From: Dehalococcoidia bacterium
GTDB lineage: Bacteria; Chloroflexota; Dehalococcoidia; Plut-88900
DNA: 64,000 nucleotides
Direction: 5' to 3'
Assembly (NCBI GenBank): GCA_965207225.1
Contig: CBDBLV010000004.1
Coordinates: 800,001-864,000, forward strand
The notes beneath the pieces were generated by a model. It did not search any database and had not been told where the DNA came from. It saw nothing but the letters and a program-made list of their open reading frames with translations. Within the stretch, counting starts at the first letter, position 1. Each line of letters begins with the position of its first letter. Positions 32,556-55,987 of this stretch are shown here, piece after piece. The position numbers and the translations under genes were made by a program.

Positions 32556-33589
32556 GGGTCCGGTAGAATAGCTGGCTTGCTATGAAACGCAAAAGGGGCC
32601 GCATACATGGGGAGCTAGCGATTACATTAAAACAGGGAACAGAGACTTCCCACTGTCTGTAACTGGCCCGGACGGTCAACTGATCGGATACATAGGTCCT
32701 AACGGCTACTGGACTATCGGTGAACCAGATCCTGTAATCACGGGTTCGGTGATGACGGTTGAAGAATTCGGCGGGCCCGACGCCAACCAACAAGCGCCTG
32801 CCGGACAGTGAACTACTCATCAAGTCAGCGTTCTGGCAGCGTGCGACCAGAACGCTGACTTGCAACAAAGTTAGATTAGGGAGGGGTGCGCCATTGCAAT
32901 CATGTGCTGGCGCGCCCTGATTGGTTCGTCGAACACTCGGCAGTGCCCTAGGAGGCTACGGCCCTTCATCTGAAAACCTATCCCTTGGGACGATTGTCTC
33001 AGGGGATTTTCTTTTGCCAAGCTCCCTCTCCCGCCTGGCCCGCGCCCATTCCCTGTGACCGCGCGTCGCACCGCTATCAGCGTCAACGACTCGGTGACGC
33101 TCCAGTGCGTCTCGCTCACGTTTAGGAGCGTAAGCTTTGCCGCAATCGCAAGTGCCTTGACTGCCAGGCGGCCCAGCGCGAGAACCAGACAGTCAACCCA
33201 CTTGGGAATCAGCCCCGGATAGTCCGGGACGTCCGCCCTGTGGGAGCTGCGGCCCCTGCTGCGGACCTCGTTCATTCCCCCAGGCAGCATCTGATCACCT
33301 CATTACCCCGCTTCAGTTCGTCTATAGCAGCTAACATCATCGCATTCACCTGAGTTTGAGTTTCCTTTTGGGAATTATAAGGGAGACTTGACGGAATGGT
33401 CACACGACAACGCAATGCTGGGTATGGGAGGTGGGCAACTATCTAAGGAGTCGTCCAGTACTAGGAAGGCAAACCCACAGCGCAGGCAGTGTTTGGCGAC
33501 CTCCAGCCTCGACTTTGTACAATAGCTAGACAGAATAAGGAAGCGGGATAAGCTGGGCGTACCAATCCATCACGAGAGGTACCGCCCGC

Positions 33590-34386
33590 GCTCATCCCGC
33601 CAGAAGCTATTGTACCGATACTCCAGCCCTTCTCAAGTCTGTTACACTGGAGGACGTGGACGAAAGCTCAGATCCTGCTGTTCGGAGCCATACTCAGTCC
33701 GCGAAAACGGACCATCAAATCGGAGCTTCGCGTAATAGGACTCGGCGACGATTACGGCTTCGCAAAGTATCACCACGTTCTCAACCGCGCGGTCTTCTCT
33801 CCTCTCCGACTCAGCAGGGTTCTGCTGTTGATTCTGGTCCAGCGTCTCGGTCGAGACGGTGAGCCGATGGTCTTCGGTATAGACGAGACTAACGAGCGCC
33901 GTCGCGGCAGACGCATCAACGCTCTGGGAGTCTATCGAGACGCTGTCCGCTCCAGCGAGTCACATGTGGTCAAGACCACCGGTCTGCGTGGGATAAGCCT
34001 GATGTGGCTGGCGCACATACCATGGGCGCATCGAACCTGGGCCCTGCCGGTTCTGACTGCTCTGGCTCCATCCGATCAGTACCATAGGGAGGTCGGTCTT
34101 CCTCAACAAGAGGATCACCGACTGGGCGCGTCAGATGATACTCCAGATGCGACGCTGGCTGCCTACCAGACGCATCGTCGTGGTCGCAGACCGTAACTAT
34201 GCCGCCCTCGAATTGCTCAACTTCTGCCAATCCCTGACACAGCCGGTCACCTTCATCACCAGGCTGAGACTCGACGCAGAACTCTACGAACCTCCGCCAA
34301 GCAGAATGCCTGGACAGATCGGACGTCCTCGCATCAAGGGACAGCGACTGCCCTCGCTTGGGATCGCAGACCGCATACTGGTATAG
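33590..34386 (+). pseudogene. Degenerate DDE_5 (IS701/IS4-like) transposase fragment
   Basis: FGIDETNERRRG..GVYRDAVRSS, WALPVLTALAPS, VVADRNYA and ITRLRLDA in several frames; ends approximate. Confidence 0.8.
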
Positions 34387-34401
34387 TGGAGTTTGCGCCT
34401 C

Positions 34402-35289
34402 ATGATCAATCTATTCAGAAAACTCAAGACGTCCTTAGGGTGGTGTGACGCCGACTCTGACTCTGACCTTTCGTATCTATACCGCGTCAACCTTCATGGC
34501 GAGCCTGACATGGAAGAGCTCGCGGAAGCGGCAGGTCGGCGTATGCGCCATTGGATGTTGATTGAGAACGTCGGGAACGTGATTCTTGGACTGCTTATGG
34601 CAATCCCGTTGTTCATCGCTAGGCGTCTGAAGAGACAAGCGCAGTCCGCGCCGCCCGAATTGGACGAACACGGATTTCCGATGGACTGGCGACAAGACCC
34701 TACGACTCGCCCGATCTTGGTTAGCCATCTTGAGCAGTCTGCAGAGGACTGGGCAATATTCGAACGCTGGTGCGAAGCCAAGTCTTTCAGGGCGTTCCCA
34801 GCTTCGCCTGAGACGGTTCTGAAATTCCTAACCGACCCGTCCGTTCACGGGCAGCGTCTCGCAGACGTGTACTGGGCCATTGATCGCCGGCACGATGCCT
34901 ACTACTGGAATGAGGATGCGAATCCTTGCTACTACATAGACCGCTGTTACAGCGTAGATGTTTCCGCGAACGGGGAGGTGACGTTCGCGGACCACTGGAA
35001 CGTCTTTGACTGGTGGCGCCGCGAAAGGGACGTCGTCTCTTTACCCGCGTCTCCGGATGCGGTTCTGGCGTTTCTGAGAGAGCCGCCTCTGTCCGGCCCT
35101 AACCTCTACCACGTTTGGGTGGCAATAGGCGAACGCCACGATGCCCACTATCGCCACGAAGACGCCAACCCTCGCTATGTCCTGGAGCGAGAGTTTGGAG
35201 TGAGTGTCGCGCCGGACGGGGCGGTGAGCATTCCTGCCAGCGCTCCTAATGCCCCAGCCTATCCCATGCGTTGGGGTTATACTGAGTGA
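34402..35289 (+). CDS. Hypothetical protein: TM helix plus two tandem domains resembling the Cre-like recombinase N-terminal domain
   Basis: WAIFERWCEAKSFRAFPASPETVLKFL and WNVFDWWRRERDVVSLPASPDAVLAFL repeats, each followed by RHDAxY..EDANP. Confidence 0.65.
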   Translation: MINLFRKLKTSLGWCDADSDSDLSYLYRVNLHGEPDMEELAEAAGRRMRHWMLIENVGNVILGLLMAIPLFIARRLKRQAQSAPPELDEHGFPMDWRQDPTTRPILVSHLEQSAEDWAIFERWCEAKSFRAFPASPETVLKFLTDPSVHGQRLADVYWAIDRRHDAYYWNEDANPCYYIDRCYSVDVSANGEVTFADHWNVFDWWRRERDVVSLPASPDAVLAFLREPPLSGPNLYHVWVAIGERHDAHYRHEDANPRYVLEREFGVSVAPDGAVSIPASAPNAPAYPMRWGYTE

Positions 35290-35479
35290 AGCCCCGCGCT
35301 CCGACGGAATGAACATACGACTGCTGGTCTCTATTTATTCAGAGGCTGTACCCGATTTAGGCAGGTAGGTGTTTCGAGGGATACGGTTGACAGTGGAGTA
35401 GCGCTCTGGTTCCAGCTTTCGCGAGAATGGGGTCGAAGACGAAAGTGGGGTCCAATATCTGAACGCACAATCTAGGAAA

Positions 35480-35508
35480 GTAGGGACAGGTTTGAAACCT
35501 GCCCCTAC
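35480..35508. repeat. REP-like palindrome
   Basis: GTAGGGACAGGTTTGAAACCTGCCCCTAC (GTAG foot plus hairpin) downstream of the DUF1501 gene. Confidence 0.75.
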
Positions 35509-35568
35509 GGGTTAGCCGAATTATCCTTACGGTTGTCGGATAGTCGGGCGTTAGTTGTTTCCAGTGCG

Positions 35569-36310
35569 CTAGTTGCGGACGAAGTCGAACTGCTCGAAGT
35601 TGCCGTTGGCGATCGGTTCTGGGCCGAGGCCGAGCCAGCGGTCGAGGATGGTGGAGTAGGTGATGCGGAAGTCGTTGCTGAAGAGCATATCGCCTTCGAG
35701 CTGGTCTTCGGGGCGCAGCGACGGGAAGTCGCCGTAGAGACCGCCGTTGACGTCGCCGCCAACTACGAACGCCACGCCGCCGGAGCCGTGGTCGGCGCCC
35801 GCTCCGTTGTCGTTGATGTGGCGCCCGAACTCGGAGAACATGAGGACCACCGTGTCCTTGTCGCGCCCGCGCTCCTTGAGGTCGTCCATGAAGTCGGCGA
35901 CAGCGGAGGATACGTCGCCCCACAACTTGGCGTGGGCGGCGAGCTCGTTGGCGTGTGTATCGAAGCTGCCGCGCTGAGTGTAGAACCCGCGGGCGCCGAC
36001 GTCGGCGAACATTGCCTGAGCGATGTTCTTCATGTTCTCAGCTATGGGGGTGTCTGCGTACTCGACGCTGGAGGTGTAGGCTTCGGGAGCGGTGCGGAGG
36101 ATGTCGGCGCCCTTGAGCGCGTCCATGCCCACCTGGCTGATGAACTGCGAGATGGTGTCTTTGCCGGATCCGCCGTATATCTGCGAGAACGCTTCTAGGG
36201 CGAGCTTGCGCGCCGCTTCGTCCTTGATGTCGGGCATCAGGCCGTAGGTCTCGAGGTTGCCTACGGAGGCGACGGGGACGTCTTTGGCGTACATGGCGCG
36301 CGGCAGCCTC
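35569..36310 (-). pseudogene. DUF1501-family protein, 5'-truncated
   Basis: GSFDTHANE, MFSEFGR..N..GADHG and GGDVNGGLYGDFPSL; homology stops at GLPRAM near 36310. Confidence 0.85.
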
Positions 36311-37254: not shown

Positions 37255-38436
37255 ATGGGTAACCGTCCCATAGGCGGAGACGTGGACTTTCTGCGCGAGG
37301 CGCTGCGGGTGTTGATGGATGCGATCATGGATGCCGAGGTCTCAGCGAGGATCGGCGCCGAGCATGGCGAACGCAACCCTGACCGACTGACTCATCGCAA
37401 CGGGTACCGCTCCCGTACTTGGGACACGAGGGTCGGGACTATGGAGCTTCGCATACCCAAGCTGAGGGAGGGAAGCTACTTCCCCTCTCTGCTTGAGCCT
37501 CGAAGGCGCAGCGAACGCGCTCTGCTGTCTGTTATCCAGCAGGCGTACGTCGAGGGTGTGTCCACGAGGCGTGTGGACGATCTGGTCAAGGCGCTGGGAT
37601 GCGATGGCATCTCCAAGAGCCAGGTGTCTCGTATCTGCGGGGAGCTCGACGGTGTGGTCGACAGCTTCCTGGGAAGGCCGCTGGATGAAGGACCGTACTG
37701 CTATGTGTGGCTGGACGCGCTGAGCCAGAAGGTCAGAGAGGAAGGCAGGATAGTCAACGTATCTGTGGCTGTGGCGACCGCGGTGAACGCCGAGGGCAAG
37801 CGTGAGATCGTGGGCATGGACGTGGGAACGAGTGAGAACGGCGCGTTCTGGCTGGCGTTCCTGCGATCCCTGTCCACCAGGGGCCTTTCGGGCGTTCAGC
37901 TTGTGACCTCGGATGCACACCATGGACTGAGGGATGCGATAGCGACTGTGTTCGCCGGCGCCGGTTGGCAGAGATGTCGCGCCCACTTCATGACCAACCT
38001 TCTCACCCGCGTACCCAAGAACGCCCAGCCCTGGGTTGCGACCATGGCGCGCACGATCTACCAGCAGCCGTCCGCCGAGGAGGCGCGCTCCCAGTTCAAC
38101 AGAGTCGTCGACCAACTCAACGACCGGTTCCCTGAGGCATCCTCGATGCTGGCAGAAGCCGGAACTGACATACTGGCGTTCACCTCCTTCCCCGGCGCTC
38201 ACTGGAAACAGGTATGGTCGAACAATCCCCAGGAGAGACTGAACAAGGAGATACGTCGCAGGACCGACGTGGTGGGGATCTTCCCGAACCGGCCCGCGGC
38301 GCGTCGGCTGATCGGAGCTGCACTCGCCGAGCAGCGCTATGAGTGGGCAGTGGGCAGACGGTACCTGACGCCCGCTTCAGCGACCTACGACAAAGCGTTG
38401 CCGGAGGCTCAGATCACACAGCCGACTGCGGCTTAA
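37255..38436 (+). CDS. IS256-family transposase (native N-terminus replaced)
   Basis: RNGYR..DTRVG..IPKLREGSYFPS, GVSTRRV, WLDA, SDAH.GL, WQRCRAHF and SNNPQERLNKEIRRRT. Confidence 0.92.
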   Translation: MGNRPIGGDVDFLREALRVLMDAIMDAEVSARIGAEHGERNPDRLTHRNGYRSRTWDTRVGTMELRIPKLREGSYFPSLLEPRRRSERALLSVIQQAYVEGVSTRRVDDLVKALGCDGISKSQVSRICGELDGVVDSFLGRPLDEGPYCYVWLDALSQKVREEGRIVNVSVAVATAVNAEGKREIVGMDVGTSENGAFWLAFLRSLSTRGLSGVQLVTSDAHHGLRDAIATVFAGAGWQRCRAHFMTNLLTRVPKNAQPWVATMARTIYQQPSAEEARSQFNRVVDQLNDRFPEASSMLAEAGTDILAFTSFPGAHWKQVWSNNPQERLNKEIRRRTDVVGIFPNRPAARRLIGAALAEQRYEWAVGRRYLTPASATYDKALPEAQITQPTAA

Positions 38437-38966
38437 TTGAACAAAAGGATTGACGTACTCCCACACCACTCTAAGGGACTTGACCACCAGGTGTGTATCG
38501 CGCACGTCAGAAAGTGGGTGTGGAACCGACTCAGGGAGATAGAAGGGTGGGACTGGTACAGGAGTCGGATATGGCTTCTGCTGACCGAGTTGCCACAGGG
38601 AGGTGGGCGAGAGTTGCTGGAGATGGAGCCTGTGGTTCGCAGACAACCGAAGCTTCACAGGCTGGTGGTGGAGTTGTGCGAGAAGTGGCGGTCTCTGACA
38701 TGTCACCAGCGGGTGAGAGCAATGCCACAGACCAACAACTGCACGGAGCGGACGATAGGAAGGAGCAAGATCAGGTACAGGACGGTCAGGGGGTACAAGA
38801 GCGAGGAAGGAATGATGAATGGACTGGGACTCACGCAGTGGGTATGGAGCGGTCAGGAAGCGCTCGACCTCGGCGTGTTGATCGCCGCCTAGATACTGGC
38901 TCTCTCTGCCCACGCTGACCCTTTCAAACTACTTTCAACATCTCACACCGCCTATGGGACGGTTAC
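37259..38966 (+). mobile_element. Chimeric element: ends of an unclassified IS enclosing an IS256 transposase and a second transposase C-terminus
   Basis: Perfect 19-bp IR GTAACCGTCCCATAGGCGG at 37259 and 38948-38966. Confidence 0.8.
38437..38892 (+). pseudogene. C-terminal fragment of an unclassified DDE transposase (same family as 43848 and 49771)
   Basis: HQVCIAH, TNNCTERTIGRSKIRYRTVRGYKSEEGMMNGLGLTQWVWSG. Confidence 0.8.
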
Positions 38967-39623
38967 GCCGGAGGTCTCCCCTTGACAATCCGGACGATGG
39001 CATTCAACAAGATAACGCCCCACGCGTATTACGCGGCGTCTTCGCTGACGAGGGCGGCGTGAAGGGATTCTCAAGGCTTCGACAGCGGCGCGTGAGTGGT
39101 CATAACGTTTGTCCCATGCGAACCAGTCCAGTCCTCGACGCTTAAGCTCGTGTCTCAATACGCGGAGTTCTGCTGATACGACGTATTTTGGACGTGTGGA
39201 GTGGGTGAATCCCTCTTGTCCGTGGGTTATGAAGGCTGCGTCGGCGTCGGTCATGGCGGCGAACAACTCGTCGTCCGGCAGGTTCTGAGCGCTTGCTCTC
39301 CACCTGCTCCAGGGGATTCTGCATGATTCCTCGGAGAATACGAGAGTCGAACTTCCTATCGAGTCCACTCCCAATCCACATTCGCCGCAGGCGTACTCGG
39401 TTGGAGAGTTCTCTGATCTCCATTGGTGGATTGCCCGTTCGTCTCCACACATGACGAATTCGTCCAGCAGTTGCTTTGTATGATCGAGTGATGATACGAG
39501 AGCTACGACTTGTCCTCGGCCTTGGTCCGGCTTTTGCGAGTCGGCGAAGAACTCCGATACTGGACGTTGGAATATCGTGGTGAGATAGATCTCTTTTTCA
39601 TGCTCCGTTAGCGCGGCGACCAT
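38952..39623 (-). CDS. Hypothetical protein; C-terminus runs into an IS end
   Basis: AGGAG RBS before the ATG at 39623; no recognised domain. Confidence 0.45.
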   Translation of the reverse strand: MVAALTEHEKEIYLTTIFQRPVSEFFADSQKPDQGRGQVVALVSSLDHTKQLLDEFVMCGDERAIHQWRSENSPTEYACGECGLGVDSIGSSTLVFSEESCRIPWSRWRASAQNLPDDELFAAMTDADAAFITHGQEGFTHSTRPKYVVSAELRVLRHELKRRGLDWFAWDKRYDHSRAAVEALRIPSRRPRQRRRRVIRVGRYLVECHRPDCQGETSGVTVP

Positions 39624-39955
39624 ACGATGTCTCCTGTCCTCGATTTCCACCGGGCTTTGCAAGTCTGGTGAAATGTGGAATCTGGGATTCAGTATAGCAC
39701 GATGTGGAAGTTGTTGTTCGTTCGGGGCATGGGGTAAGCGTATGTGAGATATAATGGCGCCGTAGGAGGCGGCGGACATGAGACCGATCACACTATTGAA
39801 TTACTTGTCGAGATGATCGCTCGGCAGGATGAGGCGTTGGCCGAACATACCGCCGATGAGCGCGATGCGGTCGATTGCCGGCCGGGACTGGATAACCGAA
39901 GCGATCAATGGCCTGCCGTCCTCTCATGCGGCTTGCTCAGACTAAAATGATGTTA

Positions 39956-40837
39956 GAGGGTGTCTGAAAAGGTATTTCATGCGGGTCGCGCCAGTCTGCG
40001 CAGCATCAGCCTGACCATGGCAGCACATACAAGCGCCTCCTCTGTCTCTGGCAGGAACTCATAGTCCTTCGACAGCCGACGGTTGCGAACCAGCCACGCA
40101 AACGTACGCTCCACCACCCATCGCCTGGGCAACGCCACAAACCCCACCGGGCGAGTCGGCGGATCCTGGTCATCTCGTAGCCACACCCTCCCACTCCACG
40201 GATGTCGAACCACCTCCAGATCCCACCCCAACTCGGCCCGCATCCACTCCTTCAGTCCCCTGTAAGCGCTGTCGGCCCATACCTTCGCCATTCTCGGGAA
40301 CACGCCTCGCAACTTCCCAAGCAGCAACTCCGCTCCCTTCCTGTCGCGCAATCCCGCCTCATGCGCCACCACCTTCATCGCTAAACCCCGTGTATCGACC
40401 AATATGCGCCTCTTTCGCCCATTTATCTTCTTGCCTCCGTCGTAGCTTCGAGGCCCCTTTTTTCCGTGATCCTCACCGACTGGCTGTCGATGATTGCCGC
40501 GCTCGGCGTGGGATCGCGCCCCTGCCTCATTCGCTCCCGCTCACGCAGATCCTGGTTGATCTCCTCCCACACCCCTTCCATCCGCCAGGCTCTGAAGTAG
40601 TGATAGACCGTCTTCCACGGTGGAAGATCATGCGGAAGCATCCGCCAGGATATTCCACCCCTCAGAACGTAGAAGATGGCGTTGAGCGCCTCTCTGGTAT
40701 CTGACGAACGTGGCCTTCCACCGGACCTCGCCGGTGGAATCAGCGGCTTGATGATGGCCCACTCTTTGTCGGTCAGGTCTGTCGGGTAAGATAGACGCTT
40801 CATAATGAGCCTATCCTACACCCTTTCAGACACCCTC
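39956..40837 (-). mobile_element. IS5-family (IS1031-like) element with a two-ORF transposase (40423-40803, 39977-40402)
   Basis: IR GAGGGTGTCTGAAA, TTA target duplication; YPTDLTD.EW, IIDSQSV, ADSAY and [11 protein letters not shown]; A6G4 slippery run. Confidence 0.92.
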
Positions 40838-40852
40838 TTATCCACAAAAAGC

Positions 40853-42001
40853 CTAGCCTATGGATGCCCTTGCCTTTCTGACGATGTAGTCTATGGCACC
40901 AGCAGTCTCTTGCCTGCGACCGTATAAAGTCCCATCCGGTGCCACCAACCCGGCATTCACCAGCAACGATCCAGCGTTATATCCGGGCCTAAGTGATGAG
41001 GATCGCAGGAAATCCGCCAAAGGCTGCCAGTCGTCTGTCCCCCAAGACCGGTAACAGCCTGCCAGTATCCTGAACACACTTATGTTGTATGCGAGAGTAG
41101 ACGAACGTAGTTGGGGAATTTCCGAGTCTTGGACATCTCCAGAGACCAATTGCTGATATTCCTTACGAGCAGCAACCATGAATTCATCTGCCCAATGCAG
41201 ACTGCGCTTGTACAGATCTTCCAAGTTCAGCATATACGAATCATTGAGGTCTCTGCTGACACGCCTCCCGGATCCTACCTCCATGGTTTTCAGGGTGGTT
41301 GCCAGCTGATTGATTGCGATTATGTTCTGGCTGGCTCTTGGGACACTGGACCTCTCCATATCGACTCGGCCGGCGAATAATTTGCTGTTTTCGGAGAGCC
41401 ACATCGCAGCCAGATTGAAGGCGTCTCTCTGATCGAATCTGGTAACGGTGTGCGCCTCAATTCGTTTTGTTTGCGACGCATCTACGAACATTTGCCTCAA
41501 TGTCTTGATTTCGTCCTCGGCGTATAGGACTATGGTCATTGATGCCCTTCTCAATGTATCTAGTTTGTCGGCGTTGCGGTCATCATCCAAGTTGGATAGG
41601 TCATACAGTACGTCCTGTATCGCGCGGCGACGATGCTGACCGTCAAATATTCTCAGGGTGTTTGTCCTGTTAGTGAGAATTCGCAGTTCGCCGAAATCTG
41701 GGTATTCATCCGAATCATAGGGATCGAACTCTACGGCGTTGGGCGCAACCCCAAGCATCAATGCGCCGAGCAGCCAGTTATCTTTCTCGTCAAGATATCT
41801 CTGAATGTTCTTTGCATGGCTCGGCGTAAGACGGCGATTGGCTTCTCTGACTATGTTGTCTTCCACACGCTGAGGCAGTAGCCCATCGAGTGTCTGAAGA
41901 TCGAGCGCGAAGTAGTACACGTCGCGACCTCCCTGACGGAACCGATGGGATGGAATACGCAGGCTATACTGGTTGCTTACTTCAGGTATCACCAATGCCA
42001 T
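40853..42001 (-). CDS. DGQHR/DndB-family (ParB-like fold) protein
   Basis: FRQGGRDVY, ANRRLTPSHAKNI..YL, IFDGQHRRRAI and RQMFVDAS; AAGGAGG RBS. Confidence 0.88.
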   Translation of the reverse strand: MALVIPEVSNQYSLRIPSHRFRQGGRDVYYFALDLQTLDGLLPQRVEDNIVREANRRLTPSHAKNIQRYLDEKDNWLLGALMLGVAPNAVEFDPYDSDEYPDFGELRILTNRTNTLRIFDGQHRRRAIQDVLYDLSNLDDDRNADKLDTLRRASMTIVLYAEDEIKTLRQMFVDASQTKRIEAHTVTRFDQRDAFNLAAMWLSENSKLFAGRVDMERSSVPRASQNIIAINQLATTLKTMEVGSGRRVSRDLNDSYMLNLEDLYKRSLHWADEFMVAARKEYQQLVSGDVQDSEIPQLRSSTLAYNISVFRILAGCYRSWGTDDWQPLADFLRSSSLRPGYNAGSLLVNAGLVAPDGTLYGRRQETAGAIDYIVRKARASIG

Positions 42002-42049
42002 CTGAGAACCTCCTTGAATGTTATTTCCAAAGGGCTTGCAATTCTGTAC

Positions 42050-43633
42050 TTAGTTTCGACCGGCTACTCCCCTTGCCTCACTTACTATGTAGTCGATCGC
42101 TTGAACCACCAAGCGTTGCTGCGCATCTGGCGAAGTACCGCCAGGAGCTACCACACCAGCATCTACCAATAGAGCGTTTGTGCGGCTACGCGGCTTTAGT
42201 GAAGCATCGCGAAGAAATGACGCCAAGTGTTCCCAGTCAGAACTGCTCTTTGACCATTCGTGATGACATCCTGCGAGAATCCTGATGACAGTGGCGTTGT
42301 ACGCCATAGTTTTAGTACGCATCTGGGGAAGGTCTGAGTTATCGATTTCACCGGCCATGAGGTTGTTGTATTCGCCCCTCGCGGCGGGCATGAAGTCGTC
42401 TGCCCAATCCAGACACCGTTCATATAGAGAATCCAAGTCAAGCATGTAGGTTTCGTTAAGATTCTTGCTGACCCTGCCTCGGTATCCGACCTCCAGGGTT
42501 TTTAGGGTAATCGCCAACTGGTTGATAGCGATTATGTTGTGGCTGTTTCTGGGAACTGACGCTCTCTCCATCTCGACACGACCTGCAAACAGGTCGCTGT
42601 TTTCGGCAATCCAGAGCGCAGCCAAGTTGAACGCATCCCGCTGGTCGAATCTGACGACTGCATTTTTCTCTATGGGTCTGGTCTGAGCTGCATCTGCGAA
42701 CATTTGACGCAGGGCTTCTATGCTGTCCTCAGCATAGAGCATAATGGGCAATGAAGACTTTTTCAGAGAAGACAGCTTCCCGAAGTACGCGCGATTATGG
42801 GAAAGTTCTTCCAACGCATCCTTGATTGCACGCCGTCTGTGCTGGCCGTCGAACATTTTCATAGAAGCGGCATCATCTCGAGAGATTGAGAGTTCTCCCA
42901 CAGAGAGGTTGCCAGAGTATGGACGAAATTGCACAGCATCCGGAGAAACTCCCAACAGCAGCGTTCCCAACAGCCAATCGTCTCGATCCTCCAGGTAATC
43001 CTGGATTTTCTTGGCATGGCTTGGCGTCAATGGGCGATTGGCGTCTCTAACCATTCTGTCATCTATCCGGTCGGGTAGAAGGTCGTTCATAGTTTCTAGG
43101 TCCAAGGCGAATGCGTACACATCGCGTCCGCCCTGCTGGAACCTGTGAGCAGGCATCTTGAAAGGCATCAGCGCCTCCTTGAGGTTTTCCACAGCCAAGC
43201 CATGTTCGGACTCGTTGATCTCCGAGAGCGCCTTACCGATATCGGTCAAGCCGGACGTAGCGCACACAAGGTCAATGTCATGCTCGGGAGGGTGCGATAC
43301 CTCGTTGCGCGCTTTGGTGATCGCGTACATGGTATCCAACGGTCTCGCGCCCGGCGCGAAGGAATTTTGGAACACGTCCCGCCAGTACTTCTTGATGATC
43401 TGAGGGAAGTCGCCGATGTCTATTGATTCTGCGACGCTTCGACCAGCGCGTCGGTTCTGTATGAACTGATTGTACTGGTCGTCCCGGAGCGCAGAGCCTA
43501 CTAGCTCCTCTACCTCTTTGCCCAAGATGCGCTTGAGGTGTCGGATGATGAAAGGTCTCATTGCGTCTCGGTAAATGTCCAGTCCATCGGTTAGTGCTTT
43601 CTTGTTTGGACGGTCAATCGCTATCACTGCCAT
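42050..43633 (-). CDS. Swt1-like HEPN domain fused to a DGQHR/DndB domain
   Basis: N-terminal GLDIYRDAMRPFI..DIGDFPQIIKKYW.DVF..RNEVSH (R-x4-H); C-terminal MFDGQHRRRAI; GGAGG RBS before the ATG at 43633. Confidence 0.85.
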   Translation of the reverse strand: MAVIAIDRPNKKALTDGLDIYRDAMRPFIIRHLKRILGKEVEELVGSALRDDQYNQFIQNRRAGRSVAESIDIGDFPQIIKKYWRDVFQNSFAPGARPLDTMYAITKARNEVSHPPEHDIDLVCATSGLTDIGKALSEINESEHGLAVENLKEALMPFKMPAHRFQQGGRDVYAFALDLETMNDLLPDRIDDRMVRDANRPLTPSHAKKIQDYLEDRDDWLLGTLLLGVSPDAVQFRPYSGNLSVGELSISRDDAASMKMFDGQHRRRAIKDALEELSHNRAYFGKLSSLKKSSLPIMLYAEDSIEALRQMFADAAQTRPIEKNAVVRFDQRDAFNLAALWIAENSDLFAGRVEMERASVPRNSHNIIAINQLAITLKTLEVGYRGRVSKNLNETYMLDLDSLYERCLDWADDFMPAARGEYNNLMAGEIDNSDLPQMRTKTMAYNATVIRILAGCHHEWSKSSSDWEHLASFLRDASLKPRSRTNALLVDAGVVAPGGTSPDAQQRLVVQAIDYIVSEARGVAGRN

Positions 43634-43769
43634 ATGGGATGACCTCCACATCGATTCCTGAGAGCCATGCATGGGCAATCTGCCAGATCAGCACTTGCCC
43701 CGAAGCAAAATTTACAGCACATCTAAAATAACATATTATTTTACGTCTTGTCAAGCATGTAAGATAACA

Positions 43770-44708
43770 GCGGTCGCCCGATAGGTGGTGTGCGAGTTTG
43801 GGATGAATTCGAGATGGGGGCGCCCCCTCCAGACGGGCGACAGCCGGCTACGCCGCCATCAGCTCTGTAGCATCGAGTCTGTGCCCGCTCCACATCCACT
43901 GCGCCAGCCCCAATCCGTTCATCATCCCAGATTCGCTCTTGTACCCCCTCGCCGTCTTGTGCCTGACTTTGCCGCTGCATATCGCCCGTTCCGTGCTCTT
44001 CGACCGCCGGCTTGTACGTCGAAAGATGTCGTTCGCCGCCGACCCCACGCCGAACTTGCTCATGCACCCGCTCAACCACTCCACAAAAGCCGCCGGATCT
44101 CGCCTCGTCAGAACGTCCATACCCAGAAGTTGACCGCTTTCGGCGTTAGCAACGAAGCCGACCACCGCCTCCTCGCCCCGCAGCTTCATGAAAGTCTCGT
44201 CCGCTCCGATCACTCGAACCCTGCCTGGCGCCGAGCGCGCCAAGCCCGACAGGGCGCTTGTCCCCGCTTCCCGCGCCGCTCGCCACACGCTCATCCTAGA
44301 CATGTCGCATCCCAGGGCGGTCAGCGTGTGGGTTGCGGACCTAAGCGACAGTCCCAGCGCCCAGCTCAGCGCGGCGAACGTGAGCCTTTGGCTCTGGTCG
44401 CGCCGGTCCACGCCTTGCGGGTAGTGTCTGAATGCGCGTCCGCAGTCCGCACACAGGAATCTCAGCGCCATGACCGCGTCGACTCGGATGTCCTCGATGG
44501 GCTGTTGGACTTCGCCGTGCTCGCGTAGGACGCCGCAGCCGCATCGAGGACATTTCGACGGTCGACAATCCGGCCGGATCTTGACCTGTGGGAGCGTGAA
44601 TCGTACCCTTGGCATCGCCGGGGAACCTCCGGGAATTGTTTGTTGAGTATCAGCACCCTACCAGGTTCCCCAACCCTTTTCTTCAAACACCGCCTATGGG
44701 ACGATTAC
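43770..44708 (-). mobile_element. Unclassified IS with internally deleted Zn-ribbon/HTH/DDE transposase (43848-44615)
   Basis: End CCGCCTATGGGACGATTAC matches the IR at 38948; CPRCGC..CADCG, GADETF and GYKSESGMMNGLG. Confidence 0.78.
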
Positions 44709-44776
44709 GTGTTGTCTACCGTCGCGCCCTGTGACACTCAATCCGGCGAGACTCCGGCCCTTGCGCGACCGTCGGC

Positions 44777-45373
44777 TCAGGCGTCGCTGTTGGTGGAACG
44801 GGTGTCGTGATGGGGGATTCTGAAGCATCGGCTGGTCATGCCCGGGATGTCCCACATGAATCCGACCAAGCCAAGCAGGATCGACACATCCGCCACGTTG
44901 AAGATGAACCATGGGACAATGTCGATGAAGTCCGTCACGTGTCCCAAGACCAGCCGGTCGATGAGATTGCCAGTGGCGCCGGCGAGCATCAGGCCAAACG
45001 TAACCTGCGTCCGCGCTCCAGTTCTGGCCTGTGACCAGTAGAGCGTGAACAGCAGGCAGATGCCCGTGGCGGAAATGGTGATGATCGCCAAAGTATGGCC
45101 GCTGAAAAGGTCGAGAGTATTGCCCATGTTCGCCACATGTGTGAATCGGAACAGGCCACCCGCTGACCACGAATCGCCAATCGCCAGCGTCCAGATGATG
45201 AGTACTTTAGATACCTGGTCCAGCGCCAGGGCCGCAAGTGCGGTGGACATACCGATCCGGTGAGGCAAGACAAAGGTAGTAAGGCGCGTTAGAAGTGTAA
45301 CTTGTCGGTGCATGACATTCACTGACGTGAAGGGCGCGGGCAAGGAGTATCCTCGGTCTGCGCCCAGACACAC
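44777..45373 (-). CDS. lspA: Lipoprotein signal peptidase II
   Basis: LDQVSK, GATGNLIDRL..GHVTDFID and FNVADVSI motifs; start probably further downstream. Confidence 0.88.
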   Translation of the reverse strand: MCLGADRGYSLPAPFTSVNVMHRQVTLLTRLTTFVLPHRIGMSTALAALALDQVSKVLIIWTLAIGDSWSAGGLFRFTHVANMGNTLDLFSGHTLAIITISATGICLLFTLYWSQARTGARTQVTFGLMLAGATGNLIDRLVLGHVTDFIDIVPWFIFNVADVSILLGLVGFMWDIPGMTSRCFRIPHHDTRSTNSDA

Positions 45374-45388
45374 TGGTCGTTGTGGGAG

Positions 45389-45844
45389 TCATTGCAGGTA
45401 TGGGGCGGCAGTCTTGCCACCAACGTATGCGCTCACGCCTATCACCTCTCCGGTCTTGGCATCCAGCGCGAACGTGATGTTGTCGTAGGTCTGACCACCG
45501 GCGCCCGGCAGGGACAACATCACGTCGCCCTCAAACGCCACCACCCAGACTCGTCGATCAGGGTTGAGTCCAACCCCGCTCGCATCCGGACCTGCTTCGC
45601 CGGTTCCGTTCGATGAAACCCTTGTGTAGTCAGCAAGATTGGTTAGCGTGGTCGTCACCCTGGCAGGGACACCGACGAGACCCGCAAACTGGGCCTCCGA
45701 CAATCCTTTGGTCTGCGCTTCGTTGGCATTCATGACGCTGCTCTGGTTGGGATTAGCCGCGAAAGTGAAGATAAGGGACGCGATAATCCCAAGAACCACC
45801 AGTACGATCAAACCTCCGAATATAAATGGTTTTCTTGCCGTCAT
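45389..45844 (-). CDS. Membrane-anchored/secreted hypothetical protein (PepSY-like C-terminal hairpin)
   Basis: GGAGG RBS, N-terminal TM, VWVVAF..FALDAKTGEVIG. Confidence 0.7.
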   Translation of the reverse strand: MTARKPFIFGGLIVLVVLGIIASLIFTFAANPNQSSVMNANEAQTKGLSEAQFAGLVGVPARVTTTLTNLADYTRVSSNGTGEAGPDASGVGLNPDRRVWVVAFEGDVMLSLPGAGGQTYDNITFALDAKTGEVIGVSAYVGGKTAAPYLQ

Positions 45845-45872
45845 GGCAATACCTCCACGGTTTCTGTGTCGT

Positions 45873-46322
45873 TTACTCGTTGCCTGTTGCCCGGAAATTA
45901 TTTCCGTCGATGTTCACGGTCGTGTACGGAGCATCTTCGCGGTGGACGATATGCCCATTCCATGACCGATGGACCCAGCCACCGCCGCTCCACACCTGAT
46001 ATTTCAGCCCCCCACTGCCGCCGTCGCCGCACCTGGTGTTGCCCATTCCCTCGACGCCGGTTGCAACTTCCCCGCCGCAGAATACACGGTCGCCCTGTGC
46101 GAAACTGAGATTGTCGGAGTGAATATGCTGGCCGTCATAAAACCAGTGATACTTCGCCGACTGCCGGTCGTACTGGTTTGAGAACGAGTGGGTGGAGCCT
46201 GAATCATAGGAGAATTCCCTTGTATGATAGTCTGGGTTTTCCCAGACTATTAGACCCTTAAATGTCCCGTTGGACTTCTTCCACCAACCGATCTCACCAT
46301 ATCGCCGCGGGCTGGTCTGCAT
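45873..46322 (-). pseudogene. C-terminal part of a secreted beta-sandwich protein, neprosin/G-peptidase-like
   Basis: GEIGW..WFYDG..CGGEV motifs; in-frame stop just upstream, N-terminus missing. Confidence 0.5.
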
Positions 46323-46713
46323 GACCCCGACGCGGTTGTAGGACCATTATAGCGATAATCCGAGAAATTCCATTTGGCGCATTCAAATCCACCGAGTGTC
46401 AGGGAATCATAAGAAGGCAGTGGCCGAGTCATGCGCTCGGCTACATGGACGGACCACAGTCTGGACAATCAGTCCTGACAGATATTTGGCCCATGCTGAA
46501 GGCGTGGGGCGTAAGAATGACGGGCACCCAGCCCAGACGCTATGAAATGACCGATGCCGCCAAGACGACGGTGAGATGAACTCGTCCCCTTGCCCTCACA
46601 CCAACCCAGCCCGCCTGGTAGACTCCGCGCTCTTGATGTACCTACTCCGTAGCCGCTCCACGTCATCGCGGACGCGCCCGGCAGTTTCGGCGCGCGTTGC
46701 TGTCAGCATCACA

Positions 46714-48147
46714 CTAGTACTACAGTCGCAGATGATCATGGAGATGCTGGAGTCGGCGTTGGTAGTGGCAACGGCGGGCCCGGGCCTGGTGGCGTCGTCT
46801 CCAGCGGGACCAGGCTAACGCCAATTCGGGCGACCCCCTGGGCTGCCAGATCAATCGGCACAGCAGTCGTCGCACCTCGGGAACCGTGAACGGTATCAGT
46901 CTTTGATCCCGACCCGCGTCTCCCCCTTTTTGACTTCTGGGCAGGCGTTAGCCCGTAGCCGCACTACCGCCAGGAAGGCATGGGCCAGCATGGCCAAGGT
47001 GACGTGCCGGTACCATCCCTCCCATCTGCGCACTTCATACTGGTCCAGGCCCACCTGACCCTTGGCTTCCTCAAAACATTCTTCAATGGTCCACCGAGTT
47101 CCCACCACTTGCGCCAGTTCCTTCAGAGTCGTCTCCCCAGGGCCGTAGCAGACGTAATAGGCCAGCTCTTCAGGCTGAGCTATGCTGCGGCGGACCAGCA
47201 GCCAGTACCCCTTGCCTGGTTCCCGCAAAGGACGGATAGCAACCCAGGTCCAGTCGTAAATCCTAGGTCCCTTGGCCCCGTCCCCAGCGCTCAACCGGAC
47301 CCAGTCCGCTTCTTCCACTTGGGACGCCAACCGGTCCGCACGCGCCTGGCTGTACCCTTCCTCCGTCCATGCCCACAGCTTCTCGTTGCTCTTGATAGCC
47401 AGCGCGTGGGATATCTCTCGCTCCTCCAGCCATCGCCGCAGCCTGCGGTCGCTGCCGTACACCGTGTCTCCGGCAAACCACCGGAAGGGGATGCCCCCTT
47501 CTGCCGCACGCTCCACATTTTCCGGGCCAGTTGCGGCTTGGTCTGGAACCTTACCCCCTCCGGCGCTCCCGCCTCATGGCGCCGCTCCCAATCCTCTGAC
47601 CATACCTGGGGCAAGTACAGCTCGCGATCCAACAGAACCCTGCCCTGGGCGGTAGCGTAGGTCAGGAATACTCCTACCTGGCAGTTCTCTATTCGCCCCG
47701 CCGTCCCACTGTACTGACGTTGCACCCCCGCCGACTTGCTTCCCTTCTTCAGGAATCCCGTCTCGTCCGCCACCAGCGCCCCGCAAGCGTCTCCCAGATA
47801 CTCCACTACGTAGTCCCTGAGATCGTCTCGAACCAGCCCAGCGTCCCATACATAGTTGTACAGCAGGCGCTGCACTCCATCGGGCGTGGCATCCCCCGCC
47901 TGCTCCGCCAACTGCCATCCGTTCTTGCGCTCCACGGGACTGAGCAGCCCTTTCAGGTAGGCCAGTGCCCGCCAGCGGGGTTCCGAACGGTAGAACCGTG
48001 CCCCAATGCGCCGGTGGAGGTCCTCAATCCCTTTGGCCCACTGCGCCACTTCCAACACCTCAACCATCTCTCCAAACAACTCCTCTCCTCACCAATTATC
48101 TGAAGTAACCCTATTCTACTTGAACTTATCTGCGACTGTAGTACTAG
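46714..48147 (-). mobile_element. IS701-family element, transposase frameshifted (47291-48079, 46896-47516)
   Basis: Perfect IR CTAGTACTACAGTCGCAGAT including CTAG; [33 protein letters not shown] and RWTIEECFEEAK..GLDQYEVR. Confidence 0.92.
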
Positions 48148-55300: not shown

Positions 55301-55478
55301 GGTTGAGTGTGGCTACAGCATCCCGCAGCCGACGCTCCAGCACCACTTGGCCGTAATCGGTGCGCTCGTCATTGGAGGTCTCGGGAGCGATGTCGGGGCC
55401 GTGTGCCGTCTGCCAGCCAAGACCCTTCAGCCAGTCAAGGGCAGCCTGCTCGACTTCGGCCTCAGTGATAGTAGTCAT
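52341..55478 (-). CDS. hsdR: Type I restriction endonuclease subunit R
   Basis: [47 protein letters not shown] and QAIARVNR. Confidence 0.96.
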
Positions 55479-55987
55479 TTCATCCAGTCCACGACGCCAG
55501 CGATTGCCAGGATAACCATAACCGTCAGACCCGCATGAAGCCCAGCGAAGAGGATAGGTATCCACCGTTCGCTCTTCGACACAGCACGATACGCCGGACC
55601 TTGTCCCTCCTCAGCCAATCGCCACTCATGCTTGTACATCGCCACTGGAAGATGTTGCTCGAACTCGTGAATCACCTTGAACTTGACTGTGTTCAGGTCT
55701 GCGTGTGACTTGATGATCAGATACCAGAGCAGGGACACGGGAATCCCTATAATGGGAATCAGCAGCGTCCAGTAGCTCTGGCCGAAGTTTGCGGACTGCA
55801 GCCCATACAGCGCAACCAGCGCGGCGTTAATGGTCAGCAGGTAGCGGTTTGAGGTGACACGCCGTGAGCTAACATTCTCAGCAGATTGAACGTATAGCTT
55901 GTACTGCTCCAGCAGGTCTGCCTTAAACGACTTGCCGTAGGATTCTTCGGTCCTAGGAATCAATGATCCGCACTTCTCGGTACCCAT
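55475..55987 (-). CDS. Small multi-TM membrane protein (resembles the RipA/octameric membrane protein family)
   Basis: [21 protein letters not shown]...LN..KF.VI..E..LP and E.WIP.LF; three hydrophobic helices; coupled to the TIR gene and hsdR. Confidence 0.7.

Follow-up and report, generated by a model that had tools for sequence, protein, structure and literature searches.

A window of 64,000 nt from the genome of a Dehalococcoidia bacterium (contig CBDBLV010000004.1, the whole stretch of DNA analysed here) contained two adjacent paralogous genes, A and B. Both products have a DndB-type DGQHR domain of the ParB/Srx fold, and A carries an additional N-terminal HEPN domain with an intact Rx4H motif. 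The pair recurred as a unit in distant genomes, was sporadically distributed and occurred independently of the dnd and dpd systems. We give a probability of about 0.5 to the reading that this cassette is a two-gene module, self-contained and horizontally mobile, of the same functional kind as the anti-phage systems centred on ParB/DUF262 proteins. By analogy, it most likely works as a stand-alone sensor-effector defence module in the manner of SspE, GmrSD, Dazbog or PD-T4-2.

Organization of the cassette

Both genes were encoded on the minus strand. Gene A (42050..43633, ATG at 43633) encodes a HEPN-DGQHR protein of 527 aa (P0001) and gene B (40853..42001) a DGQHR paralogue of 382 aa without a HEPN domain (P0002). 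The stop codon of A (TAA, 42052-42050) and the ATG of B at 42001 were separated by a spacer of 48 nt (42002..42049, minus strand), which contained the ribosome-binding site of B (AGGAGG, 42014-42009, 7 nt before the ATG). A GGAGG (43647-43643) was located 9 nt before the ATG of A. The GC content was 0.51 over positions 41000-42999, compared with 0.56-0.65 in most flanking 500-nt segments. An earlier note on this DNA had described two co-oriented, lower-GC genes 48 bp apart with strong ribosome-binding sites, and this description was accurate. No terminator-like site was found on the minus strand in 40600-43900.

Upstream of A, a putative sigma-70-like promoter (43725..43754, minus strand) consisted of TTGACA, an 18-nt spacer and TATTTT, with 10 of 12 matches and a TG before the second hexamer. 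Judging by its sequence, this element would drive the expression of the cassette. A similar element, TTGACA...TAT(A/T)(C/T)T, was seen by eye upstream of A at the related loci L003, L006, L008, L009, L015, L017, L022 and L025. The spacer and the -10 hexamer were overlapped by a 20-nt palindrome (43724..43743, minus strand) with 8-nt arms and a 4-nt spacer, which also occurred at L025 with 7-nt arms and partially at L018 and L022. Speculatively, it might be an operator, by analogy with the autoregulation reported for DndB (PMC4507180).

Outside the cassette, the downstream flank contained an IS5-type transposase split into two ORFs (39977..40803, minus strand), one with DDE_Tnp_1 and DDE_Tnp_1_2 (39977-40402) and the other with DUF4096 (40423-40803). 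The upstream ORF (43848..44615, minus strand) had no Pfam match; it is possibly a transposase and was called transposase-like only because its C-terminus resembled, by eye, the ORF at 38437-38892. The insertion sequences formerly placed on each side are thus clear downstream and tentative upstream. A complete Type I restriction-modification system was also present in the window, 8.7-18 kb from the pair (HsdR, 52341-55565; HsdS, 57502-58818; HsdM, 59975-61525).

Domain architecture of A and B

The N-terminal domain of A (residues 1-157; 43163..43633, minus strand) was Swt1-like. HEPN_Swt1 (PF18731) matched residues 17-120 with 33.1 bits (E 7.7e-8), above the Pfam cut-off of 27.5. The Rx4-6H motif was present as RNEVSH (R109-H114; 43292..43309, minus strand), with a polar residue (N) following the arginine, and R109, N110 and H114 of the RNxxxH motif were invariant in 32/32 aligned A proteins. 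The domain was modelled with a pLDDT of approximately 90 (residues 10-155), while the C-terminal half of A was modelled poorly (pLDDT <50). Among 48,161 chains, the top two matches to the N-domain model were the HEPN domain of yeast Swt1 (4pqz; Z 8.1, rmsd 3.6, 125 aligned) and AbiF (8vz6; Z 8.0, rmsd 3.5, 143 aligned), followed by the HEPN domains of sacsin and AF_0298 (Z 6.5-6.6), all of these Z values being modest and inside the range common for helical models. With its all-helical fold and conserved Rx4H motif, the N-domain is a HEPN domain, as had been proposed earlier. The invariance of the motif in all aligned A proteins speaks for selection on an active RNase.

The remainder of A (residues 158-527; 42053..43162, minus strand) is DndB-type, with a ParB/Srx-fold DGQHR domain and a C-terminal helical domain. 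DndB (PF14072) matched residues 160-474 of A with 145.7 bits and was the sole Pfam domain of B (141.4 bits). Both proteins passed the DGQHR model TIGR03187 (A 108.9, B 93.5; cut-off 58.85 bits). Residues 158-525 of A were 57% identical to B over 372 columns (E 3e-153), so the close paralogy that had been noticed was substantiated. The DGQHR motif (A, D262-R266, 42836..42850; B, D120-R124, 41630..41644; both minus strand) was invariant in the 32 aligned A proteins and in 37/37 B orthologues and single-gene relatives, and the same was true of QGGR, ANRxL and DGQHRR as a set. Because these motifs stay invariant, B is no decayed copy. Its architecture, a ParB-like domain followed by a DndB-C helical domain, is that of DndB and DpdB. 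The model of B (pLDDT 82.2) was nearest to SspE (Z 7.0), followed by PadC (6.0), pNOB8 ParB-N (5.6), sulfiredoxin (5.3), BrxU (5.1) and DndI (5.0); all six chains at Z ≥5 have the ParB/Srx fold. Residues 167-358 of the A model matched SspE (6jiv) with Z 5.9. A Foldseek search with both models returned no match at E ≤1e-3.

PF14072 and PF18731 occurred together in 113 among the best 120 A homologues listed. The HEPN clade of A comprised 355 representatives at E ≤1e-3, and the match started within the first 50 residues in 143 of the best 150. Its C-terminal partners, in 113 scanned proteins, included DUF499 (10), UDG (4), DUF4268 (4), Mrr_N (4) and DndB (3). On the basis of these sequences, the HEPN clade of A is a movable N-terminal module. 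The Swt1-like/Abi2 catalogue of Anantharaman et al. 2013 includes the DUF499 AAA+ fusion Ava_2192 and, as in A, a Swt1-like HEPN domain whose Rx4-6H motif is intact, joined to a ParB-superfamily domain, "ParB (Saro_3948)" (PMC3710099). A fusion of DndB to HEPN was also noted by Makarova 2013 (PMC3632139).

Occurrence and evolution

Related loci (41) comprised 20 with HEPN-bearing A and B, 7 with a HEPN-less A and B, 11 with a single DGQHR gene and 3 with fragments. The pair was therefore present at 27 of the 41 loci. When the gene sets of these loci and of the window were clustered (42 sets), no non-pair family was shared beside the pair and no conserved third gene was found; the best non-pair cluster occurred in 7/42 sets and was not adjacent to the pair. 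This neighbourhood survey confirmed a conserved two-gene unit. In a quick tree, the A and B phylogenies mirrored each other (SH-aLRT of the A clade 99%), and HEPN-less pairs were basal in both clades. Together with the 11 single genes, this indicates that HEPN joined a DGQHR pair secondarily and is not the core of the system. The tree suggests an order from single gene to pair to HEPN gain. Since HEPN was missing from 7/27 pairs and from the 11 single-gene relatives, the family cannot depend on an RNase as its essential function, and a separate role falls to the DGQHR core. The previous view of a HEPN RNase restrained or scaffolded by its paralogue is qualified to this extent.

None of 30 relatives, 8 congeneric species among them, had a match, and only 2 of 400 other sampled genomes of the phylum had one, with two adjacent matches in each. 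Close relatives (58-69% identity) were encoded in Chloroflexota, Latescibacterota and Nitrospinota, and HEPN-less pairs in Binatia. No relative was found in viral contigs, and plasmids contained only canonical DndB genes (approximately 25% identity). The pair is sporadic and most likely an accessory, horizontally mobile cassette, to which its reduced GC content and the IS elements beside it in the window also point. Its nearest neighbours at the 27 loci were mostly housekeeping genes, with no Pfam family in more than 3 of the 106 scanned, which makes the association with defence islands weak and partial. Defence models (E ≤1e-35) matched one member each of these 106: HEC-02A, HEC-02B, PDC-S34, PDC-S32 and a CBASS cyclase.

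Relation to DNA modification and known defence systems

The genome containing the window (92.3% complete) had no match to DndC, DndD or DpdA. DndE had no match either, an uninformative absence since its model was silent in every control genome as well. DndC was encoded in 2/27 genomes with the pair, at a distance of 160 kb in the first and on a different contig in the second, and DpdA did not exceed its cut-off in any of the 27. The cassette thus stands alone in the genome of the window and likewise in 25 of the 27 others that contain the pair, as the earlier note had suggested, and its homologues are not confined to dnd or dpd clusters. A and B are not DndB proper by score (TIGR03233 equivalog; 63.5 and 60.5 bits, cut-off 328) or by linkage, as dndCDE was found neither nearby nor in the genome and DndC was adjacent in neither of the two positive genomes. 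They are not DpdB either (NF041060 equivalog; 29.6 and 27.7 bits, cut-off 300).

In a PADLOC search at E up to 1, the reach of which is limited because HMMER filters drop most matches above E ~0.1, only the DndB and DpdB models matched A and B. Identity with Dazbog, PD-T4-2 or Menshen was rejected on this result; PADLOC 2.0.0 presumably contains models of all three. By sequence, the cassette belongs to none of SspE, GmrSD, Dazbog and PD-T4-2.

The cassette nevertheless resembles these systems, of which GmrSD, SspE, Dazbog, Menshen and PD-T4-2 are listed as validated ParB/DUF262-centred defence systems (PMC10952713). In SspE, DndI and GmrSD/BrxU, too, a ParB/Srx-fold domain with a DGQxR-type motif is N-terminal to a helical domain. 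They appear to share a common logic with the cassette, in which a DNA sensor with an NTP switch is coupled to a nuclease effector (PMC13251355, PMC11662687, PMC10952713): a "recognize-hydrolyze-activate" scheme is described for SspE (PMC13251355), and phosphorothioate sensing is reported to stimulate the ATPase of DndI (PMC11662687). ATP and GTP binding was also reported for a DndB-like protein (bioRxiv 10.1101/2025.10.10.680097). In contrast, GmrSD, BrxU and SspE contain DUF262 (PF03235, DGQQR motif) and a C-terminal DUF1524/HNH nuclease, whereas A and B, for all the shared fold (SspE Z 7.0 and BrxU Z 5.1 with the B model), gave no hit to PF03235 up to E 1 and had no such nuclease, both ending in the DndB-type helical domain. 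The putative effector of the cassette is an N-terminal domain of the HEPN RNase type instead of the C-terminal DNase of SspE, DndI and GmrSD/BrxU, there is a second, paralogous subunit, and no partner phosphorothioate modification system is present.

Dazbog (DzbAB) and PD-T4-2 are, like the cassette, small stand-alone modules around a ParB-fold NTPase without DUF1524. Dazbog consists of two genes, the first with DUF262, is described as acting by abortive infection and reacts to a DNA methylase from phages (bioRxiv 10.1101/2022.08.27.505566); PD-T4-2 is listed under both DUF262 and HEPN PF18735 in a review table (PMC10952713). Pfam gave DndB and HEPN_Swt1 in the cassette but neither DUF262 nor PF18735, and the cassette differs further in that A combines HEPN and the ParB fold in one protein, with its paralogue B encoded by the second gene. 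DndB (dndBCDE) and DpdB (dpd) share PF14072 and TIGR03187 with A and B, both over the cut-off, but the cassette gene is duplicated, A is fused to HEPN and neither dndCDE nor dpdA is nearby. We found no published description of a HEPN-DGQHR gene paired with its paralogue, and the relevant passages of Anantharaman et al. 2013 do not include a paralogous second gene. The cassette had been put forward as a candidate new system. The novelty is smaller than that: HEPN-ParB and HEPN-DndB fusions and ParB/DUF262 defence were known, the fusions in print since 2013, and we see the cassette as most likely a variant, still unnamed, of the ParB/DUF262-type anti-phage systems.

Predicted interaction of A and B

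A was predicted to bind B, in agreement with the association expected earlier. The ipSAE values of the complex were 0.74, 0.66 and 0.64 (median 0.66), and the best of three controls scored 0.00. The same mark was reached by 58/80 solved complexes and 2/110 mismatched pairs, counts that hold only roughly here because our own alignments were used. At least 74% of the contacts were common to the runs, and the pLDDT of the partner was at least 75. The predicted contact ran through the ParB-fold domains, with H265 and R266 of A inside the interface; the HEPN domain was outside the confident interface, so the prediction does not directly support the earlier suggestion that B restrains HEPN.

Equivalent residues of the two paralogues faced each other, making the predicted interface pseudo-symmetric, and the same mode could serve homodimers of A or of B. 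Three interface positions differed between the paralogues. At A174/B30, where Ala174 of A packs on Tyr30 of B in the prediction, Ala was present in 26/28 A proteins, Tyr in 25/28 B proteins and Ser in 8/11 single genes. A245/B103 was Val in 27/28 A and Phe in 28/28 B, and A298/B158 was Met in 27/28 A and Val in 20/28 B.

Putative function

In the module that we propose, A and B would both be made from one promoter and would form a pseudo-symmetric heterodimer through contacts between the ParB/Srx-fold DGQHR domains. By analogy with SspE, DndI, GmrSD/BrxU and Dazbog, the heterodimer would bind a nucleoside triphosphate and DNA, and its NTPase cycle may report a DNA cue, for instance a modification of foreign origin or the DNA of an invader. 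HEPN RNases are active on RNA in dimeric form. With one HEPN domain per heterodimer, RNase activation should need two A-B units, which would have to meet, for example side by side on target DNA. This would amount to abortive infection through RNA cleavage and growth arrest, with HEPN having joined later as an effector on the DGQHR core. A more specific version, which we hold only tentatively, is that A and B are an obligate heterodimer of paralogous ParB-fold NTP switches with an asymmetric interface, and that two heterodimers on a DNA cue license the RNase. The asymmetric interface would then leave exactly one HEPN domain per sensor unit.

The 7 HEPN-less pairs and 11 single genes, which keep every motif of the DGQHR domain, and the basal position of the former in both clades also led us to consider that the DGQHR heterodimer itself is the effector, either a DNA nickase or an NTP-depleting NTPase, activities that have been proposed for enzymes of the ParB/Srx group, and that HEPN is an optional back-up effector or RNA-binding accessory. 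Krishnan et al. 2024 (PMC10853773) raise the possibility that DndB is a nuclease or nucleotide-degrading co-effector. We regard this alternative as rather unlikely, though the least so of those considered, since none of the 32 aligned A proteins deviated in the R, N or H of its HEPN motif and the domain was kept in nearly all of the best A homologues listed.

The absence of HEPN from the 7 pairs weighs against an addiction or toxin-antitoxin-like selfish module, in which the toxin would be A, a HEPN RNase, and B would capture A and block A-A pairing and HEPN dimerization. Toxins are common among HEPN proteins (PMC3710099), and a sporadic, mobile two-gene cassette with its own putative promoter, IS elements on its flanks and complementary residues in the predicted A-B interface would suit such a module. 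However, B is full length with all motifs kept, where typical antitoxins are small and labile, and HEPN lay outside the confident interface. A type II HEPN-MNT toxin-antitoxin system was rejected, the only partner being the DGQHR paralogue: there was no MNT-type antitoxin gene and no nucleotidyltransferase among the flanking ORFs. We consider the selfish module improbable. Still less probable is that A and B are orphan DndB-like regulators of transcription or modification that serve an unrecognised DNA-modification pathway elsewhere in the genome. Both do match Pfam DndB, and the palindrome overlapping the promoter recalls the autoregulation of DndB (PMC4507180), but their scores fell well short of the equivalog cut-offs of DndB and DpdB, DndC was absent from 25/27 and DpdA from 27/27 pair-bearing genomes, no partner gene was conserved, and the conserved HEPN active site would be left unexplained.

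ParB-fold (DUF262/DGQHR) NTPases are emerging as DNA-sensing switches, as in GmrSD, BrxU, SspE, DndI, Dazbog and Menshen. The sensor-effector module proposed here would be an RNase-coupled version of such a switch, with an RNase-type HEPN domain in place of the DNase. The steps of its evolution can all be seen in living relatives: the gene on its own, the duplicated pair, and the pair to which HEPN has been added. An annotation as "DndB" in uncultivated Chloroflexota and neighbouring phyla does not imply phosphorothioate modification. A testable idea that arises from the cassette is that how many effector domains each sensor unit carries may be determined by a paralogous partner. If A and B do form an obligate heterodimer that works in this way, the HEPN RNase would be licensed by a new, stoichiometry-gated route, and uncultivated Chloroflexota and other phyla would possess an abortive-infection system that is new.

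Organization and sequence families of the gene pair

Gene A (positions 42050–43633, minus strand, ATG at 43633) encodes a HEPN-DGQHR protein of 527 amino acids. It is followed, after an intergenic spacing of 48 nt, by gene B (40853–42001, minus strand), which encodes its DGQHR-only paralogue of 382 amino acids. A GGAGG ribosome-binding site lies 9 nt 5' of the ATG of A and an AGGAGG site 7 nt 5' of that of B; both are strong. The GC content was approximately 0.51 across the pair versus 0.56–0.65 in most flanking windows. The earlier note had described two co-oriented, lower-GC genes with strong ribosome-binding sites, and every detail was borne out. No terminator-like site was found on the minus strand between A and B. 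A sigma-70-like promoter (TTGACA-18 nt-TATTTT) was located at 43754–43725 on the minus strand, about 90 nt before the start of A, and inspection by eye showed a similar promoter-like element, conserved as TTGACA...TAT(A/T)(C/T)T, in front of A at eight or more further loci. In the window (43724–43754 region) and in L025, a related locus from another genome, an AT-rich palindrome overlaps the promoter spacer and the -10 element; it could be an operator for autoregulation.

In a Pfam scan, residues 17–120 of A matched the Swt1-like HEPN family (PF18731, 33.1 bits, cut-off 27.5), and a DndB-family region (PF14072, 145.7 bits) followed C-terminally at residues 160–474. B matched the DndB family only (141.4 bits), and DUF262 and DUF1524 were without match in either protein. 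The scan thus recovered the domains named beforehand, HEPN_Swt1 plus DndB in A and DndB in B. The close paralogy proposed for the two DGQHR/DndB domains was also upheld, residues 158–525 of A being 57% identical to B (E 3e-153). Both proteins passed the DGQHR domain model TIGR03187, and both scored far under the DndB and DpdB equivalog cut-offs. With PADLOC, the DndB and DpdB models were the only ones matched by A or B. A sequence search of the PDB with the profile of A gave no match at E up to 10. Judged by sequence, A and B are members of the DGQHR/Pfam-DndB family, A additionally of the Swt1-like HEPN family, and neither is DndB or DpdB proper.

Conserved motifs and predicted folds

The RNxxxH motif (R109, N110 and H114) was invariant in an alignment of 32 A proteins, as were the QGGR, DANR and FDGQHRRRA motifs. 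Together with the PF18731 match over cut-off, this confirmed the reading of the N-terminal domain as a HEPN domain with an R-x4-H motif. The DGQHR-domain motifs were likewise invariant in 37 B orthologues and single-gene relatives, which indicates that B is an intact paralogue rather than a decayed scaffold.

In the AlphaFold model of A, the HEPN domain alone was confident (pLDDT ~90) and the ParB-like core moderate. A fold search of this model against 48,161 PDB representatives gave the yeast Swt1 HEPN domain (4pqz; Z 8.1, 125 aligned) and AbiF (8vz6; Z 8.0, 143 aligned) as the top two matches, with further HEPN domains at Z 6.5–6.6. The model of B was good (pLDDT 82.2), and the six chains matching it at Z ≥ 5 all had the ParB/Srx fold: SspE (7.0), PadC (6.0), pNOB8 ParB-N (5.6), sulfiredoxin (5.3), BrxU (5.1) and DndI (5.0). 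The Z values for both proteins are modest, yet consistent with the sequence assignments. Foldseek against the PDB returned no match at E ≤ 1e-3 for the whole model of A or B; ParB, BrxU and SspE reached only E 0.6–0.8 for B. For the helical C-terminal half of B the model was confident, but the fold search hardly probed this part. It is equivalent to the later portion of the Pfam DndB model and to the helical 'DndB-C' domain, which PMC12065111 reports as common to Menshen NsnA, GmrSD and SspE.

Predicted complex of A and B

The predicted A–B complex reached ipSAE values of 0.74, 0.66 and 0.64 (median 0.66) versus 0.00 in all three controls. Among the calibration cases, 58 of 80 solved complexes and 2 of 110 mismatched pairs attained this ipSAE mark, counts that hold only roughly because our own alignments were used. 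The runs had at least 74% of contacts in common, with a partner pLDDT of at least 75. The interface was pseudo-symmetric, formed by equivalent ParB-fold elements of both proteins: residues 160–178, 209–226, 292–300 and 307–319 of A and 17–34, 65–82, 152–160 and 167–179 of B. From the DGQHR motifs it took in H265 and R266 (A) as well as H123 and R124 (B), and the HEPN domain lay outside its confident part.

Since A and B are paralogues, the prediction cannot tell a heterodimer from homodimers. Position A174/B30 is Ala in 26 of 28 A proteins, Tyr in 25 of 28 B proteins and Ser in 8 of 11 single genes (relatives with one unpaired DGQHR gene). The corresponding residues at A245/B103 are Val (27/28), Phe (28/28) and Phe (7/11), and at A298/B158 Met (27/28), Val (20/28) and Val (10/11). 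It is this pattern of contact residues, not the complex score, that points to a specialised heterodimer; the pairing of small against large residues would favour A–B over A–A or B–B.

The pair as a conserved unit and its history

Two scans, with one genome kept per species, yielded 41 related loci, which were classified by tblastn. HEPN-bearing A was followed by B in 20 loci and an A-type gene without HEPN by B in seven; 11 carried a single DGQHR gene and three (L016, L042 and L043) only fragments. Clustering of mechanically called ORFs within ±10 kb in 42 sets (the fetched loci and the window) revealed no other family adjoining the pair; the best non-pair cluster occurred in 7 of 42 sets and was non-adjacent. 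Among the 106 ORFs that were the two nearest per side in the 27 paired loci, each Pfam family was found in three at most, and most were housekeeping genes. Defence models matched there at E 1e-35 or lower were HEC-02A, HEC-02B, PDC-S34, PDC-S32 and a CBASS cyclase, with one member each. This neighbourhood survey agrees with the proposed two-gene unit, paired in 27 loci and joined by no further gene family. The neighbours of the single-gene relatives were mutually unrelated (GH116, MgsA, HipA and DUF5656). In a large protein collection, A matched 923 proteins at E ≤ 1e-3; 113 of the best 120 had both domains, and none of these 120 was named.

A quick IQ-TREE phylogeny of 67 DGQHR regions, rooted at the midpoint, split an A clade (28 rows, 21 with and seven without HEPN; 99% SH-aLRT) from B and the single genes. 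HEPN-less pairs branched first in the A and B clades alike, and HEPN-bearing pairs formed a derived group. A separate or decayed HEPN gene was sought by tblastn (E up to 10) in the HEPN-less loci, with nothing beyond chance-level matches. With the midpoint root as a caveat, the simplest reading is that a single gene was tandemly duplicated into A and B and that A then gained HEPN.

An exhaustive search with the HEPN domain of A found a clade of 355 representatives at E ≤ 1e-3. In 143 of the best 150 (P0125–P0274; proteins of 105–1187 amino acids) the match started within the first 50 residues, and the clade consensus was RPN..AL..A.DIYRDAMRPF ... ARN...HP. A Pfam scan of 113 of these 150, leaving out 28 shorter than 200 amino acids and nine over the residue limit, gave DUF499 (10), UDG (4), DUF4268 (4), Mrr_N (4), DndB (3) and LRR (2) as C-terminal partners. 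TPR was also seen in this position, and many C-terminal parts were without a Pfam family. Several of the partners are DNA- or base-recognition modules. The HEPN clade of A is a movable N-terminal module.

Some loci departed from the common architecture. L016 (10016–11186) holds a decayed pair, broken up into several short ORFs that carry pieces of A and B; the same genome, also represented by L035, additionally carries an intact single DGQHR gene. In L026 (11202–12806), a HEPN-less pair from a Binatia MAG, B has a C-terminal extension of ~150 amino acids with sub-threshold matches to KorB (E 9e-4) and HTH_ParB (E 3e-3), which suggests an added DNA-binding helix-turn-helix. Just three longer B relatives were found, the metagenome proteins P0122–P0124 (672–701 amino acids), in which a B-like DGQHR domain is followed by a conserved extension of ~300 amino acids. 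For this extension, Pfam gave no family and the ESM Atlas no usable similar protein; the extension may act as an alternative effector.

Distribution, mobility and separation from dnd and dpd genes

In the genome of the window (92.3% complete), A and B were the only DndB-family genes, and DndC, DndD and DpdA were without match. The lack of a DndE match is uninformative, because the DndE model matched no control genome either. DndC was found in 2 of 27 other pair-bearing genomes, near the pair in neither, so the search was capable of detecting it; DpdA was over cut-off in none of the 27. The claim that the pair stands apart from dnd and dpd genes therefore held for the genome of the window and for 25 of the 27 others.

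None of 30 relatives (eight species of the same genus, three of the same family and 19 of the same class) had a match at E ≤ 1e-10, and the pair was present in 2 of 400 sampled other genomes of the phylum. Relatives at 58–69% identity occurred in MAGs of Dehalococcoidia, Caldilineaceae, Latescibacterota and Nitrospinota; the cassette thus moves horizontally. Among viral contigs, 35 pattern matches yielded no confirmed relative. The 329 plasmid records were all below 60% identity; the matches listed, all annotated as canonical DndB or DGQHR proteins, had 24–27% identity and left the HEPN part uncovered. In an empty-site comparison, the flanking DNA (33500–36300 and 44700–46400) matched nothing in five genomes of the same genus, which makes the comparison uninformative. 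The stretch was present in four sequencing runs from one sample, and one further DNA run shared 9% of words; no RNA run was among those listed.

Genomic context within the window

Downstream of B lie a split IS5-type transposase (39977–40803) and, farther on, an IS256-type transposase (37255–38436), which is accompanied by a truncated copy. Upstream of A, an ORF without Pfam match that may be a transposase (43848–44615) is followed by lspA (44777–45373) and a split DDE transposase (DDE_5/DDE_Tnp_1; 46896–48079). With 30541–31227, these elements make up a dense IS cluster, and the IS-dense region around the cassette is an insertion hot spot. The ORFs 38437–38892 and 43848–44615, both without Pfam match, have similar C-termini, and a 279-aa ORF without Pfam match (38952–39791, minus strand), a short way downstream of the cassette, has an IS element on either side.

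A complete Type I restriction-modification system is located 8.7–18 kb upstream of the cassette on the same strand (HsdR, 52341–55565; HsdS, 57502–58818; HsdM, 59975–61525; all minus). Small ORFs and a DUF2806 gene (56462–57637) lie between HsdR and HsdS. A multi-HTH protein (62110–63207) matches the RmrA, capH and HTH_VI models, and 27673–29979 (minus) encodes a 767-aa hybrid sensor kinase with GAF, PAS, HisKA, HATPase and receiver domains and a C-terminal Trans_reg_C DNA-binding domain.

Putative mechanism and relation to known systems

HEPN RNases act as dimers. With one HEPN domain per A–B unit, activation would therefore need two units. We hypothesize, with a probability of about one half, that A and B join as a heterodimer into a ParB-fold NTP switch that would bind DNA and report a cue, that two such units meeting on the cue would activate the HEPN RNase, and that RNA cleavage would then lead to growth arrest. 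The sensing step is proposed by likeness to SspE, DndI, GmrSD/BrxU and, probably, Dazbog. In the available text of the respective sources, ParB-fold NTP switches sense DNA cues in SspE (PMC13251355) and DndI (PMC11662687), with the same role for GmrSD/BrxU (PMC10952713) and probably Dazbog (bioRxiv 10.1101/2022.08.27.505566), and a DndB-like protein is reported to bind ATP and GTP (bioRxiv 10.1101/2025.10.10.680097).

Other readings were weighed against this one. The DGQHR pair might itself be the effector and HEPN a back-up, which we consider unlikely. A toxin-antitoxin-like addiction module seems less probable still, and we regard it as most doubtful that A and B are orphan regulators of an unknown modification pathway.

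Under the preferred reading of a DNA-sensing switch coupled to a HEPN RNase, the cassette would in function most resemble ParB/DUF262-centred defence systems. The first gene of Dazbog has DUF262, and the system acts by abortive infection in response to a phage DNA methylase (bioRxiv 10.1101/2022.08.27.505566); the review PMC10952713 tabulates PD-T4-2 under DUF262 and a HEPN family. The earlier note had presented a candidate new stand-alone anti-phage system. In the literature searched, no description of the paralogous HEPN-DGQHR and DGQHR pair was found, and the supplementary neighbourhood tables of PMC3710099, PMC10853773 and PMC12065111 may hold one. The fusions as such were already in print in 2013: Swt1-like HEPN fused to ParB is listed in Table 1 of PMC3710099, and a DndB-HEPN fusion was noted in the available text of Makarova et al. 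(PMC3632139). The cassette is therefore less novel than was held. It is a real, conserved and mobile two-gene unit, set apart by sequence models from DndB and DpdB proper and without match to DUF262 or DUF1524, and a reasonable candidate for experiment with a putative role in defence.
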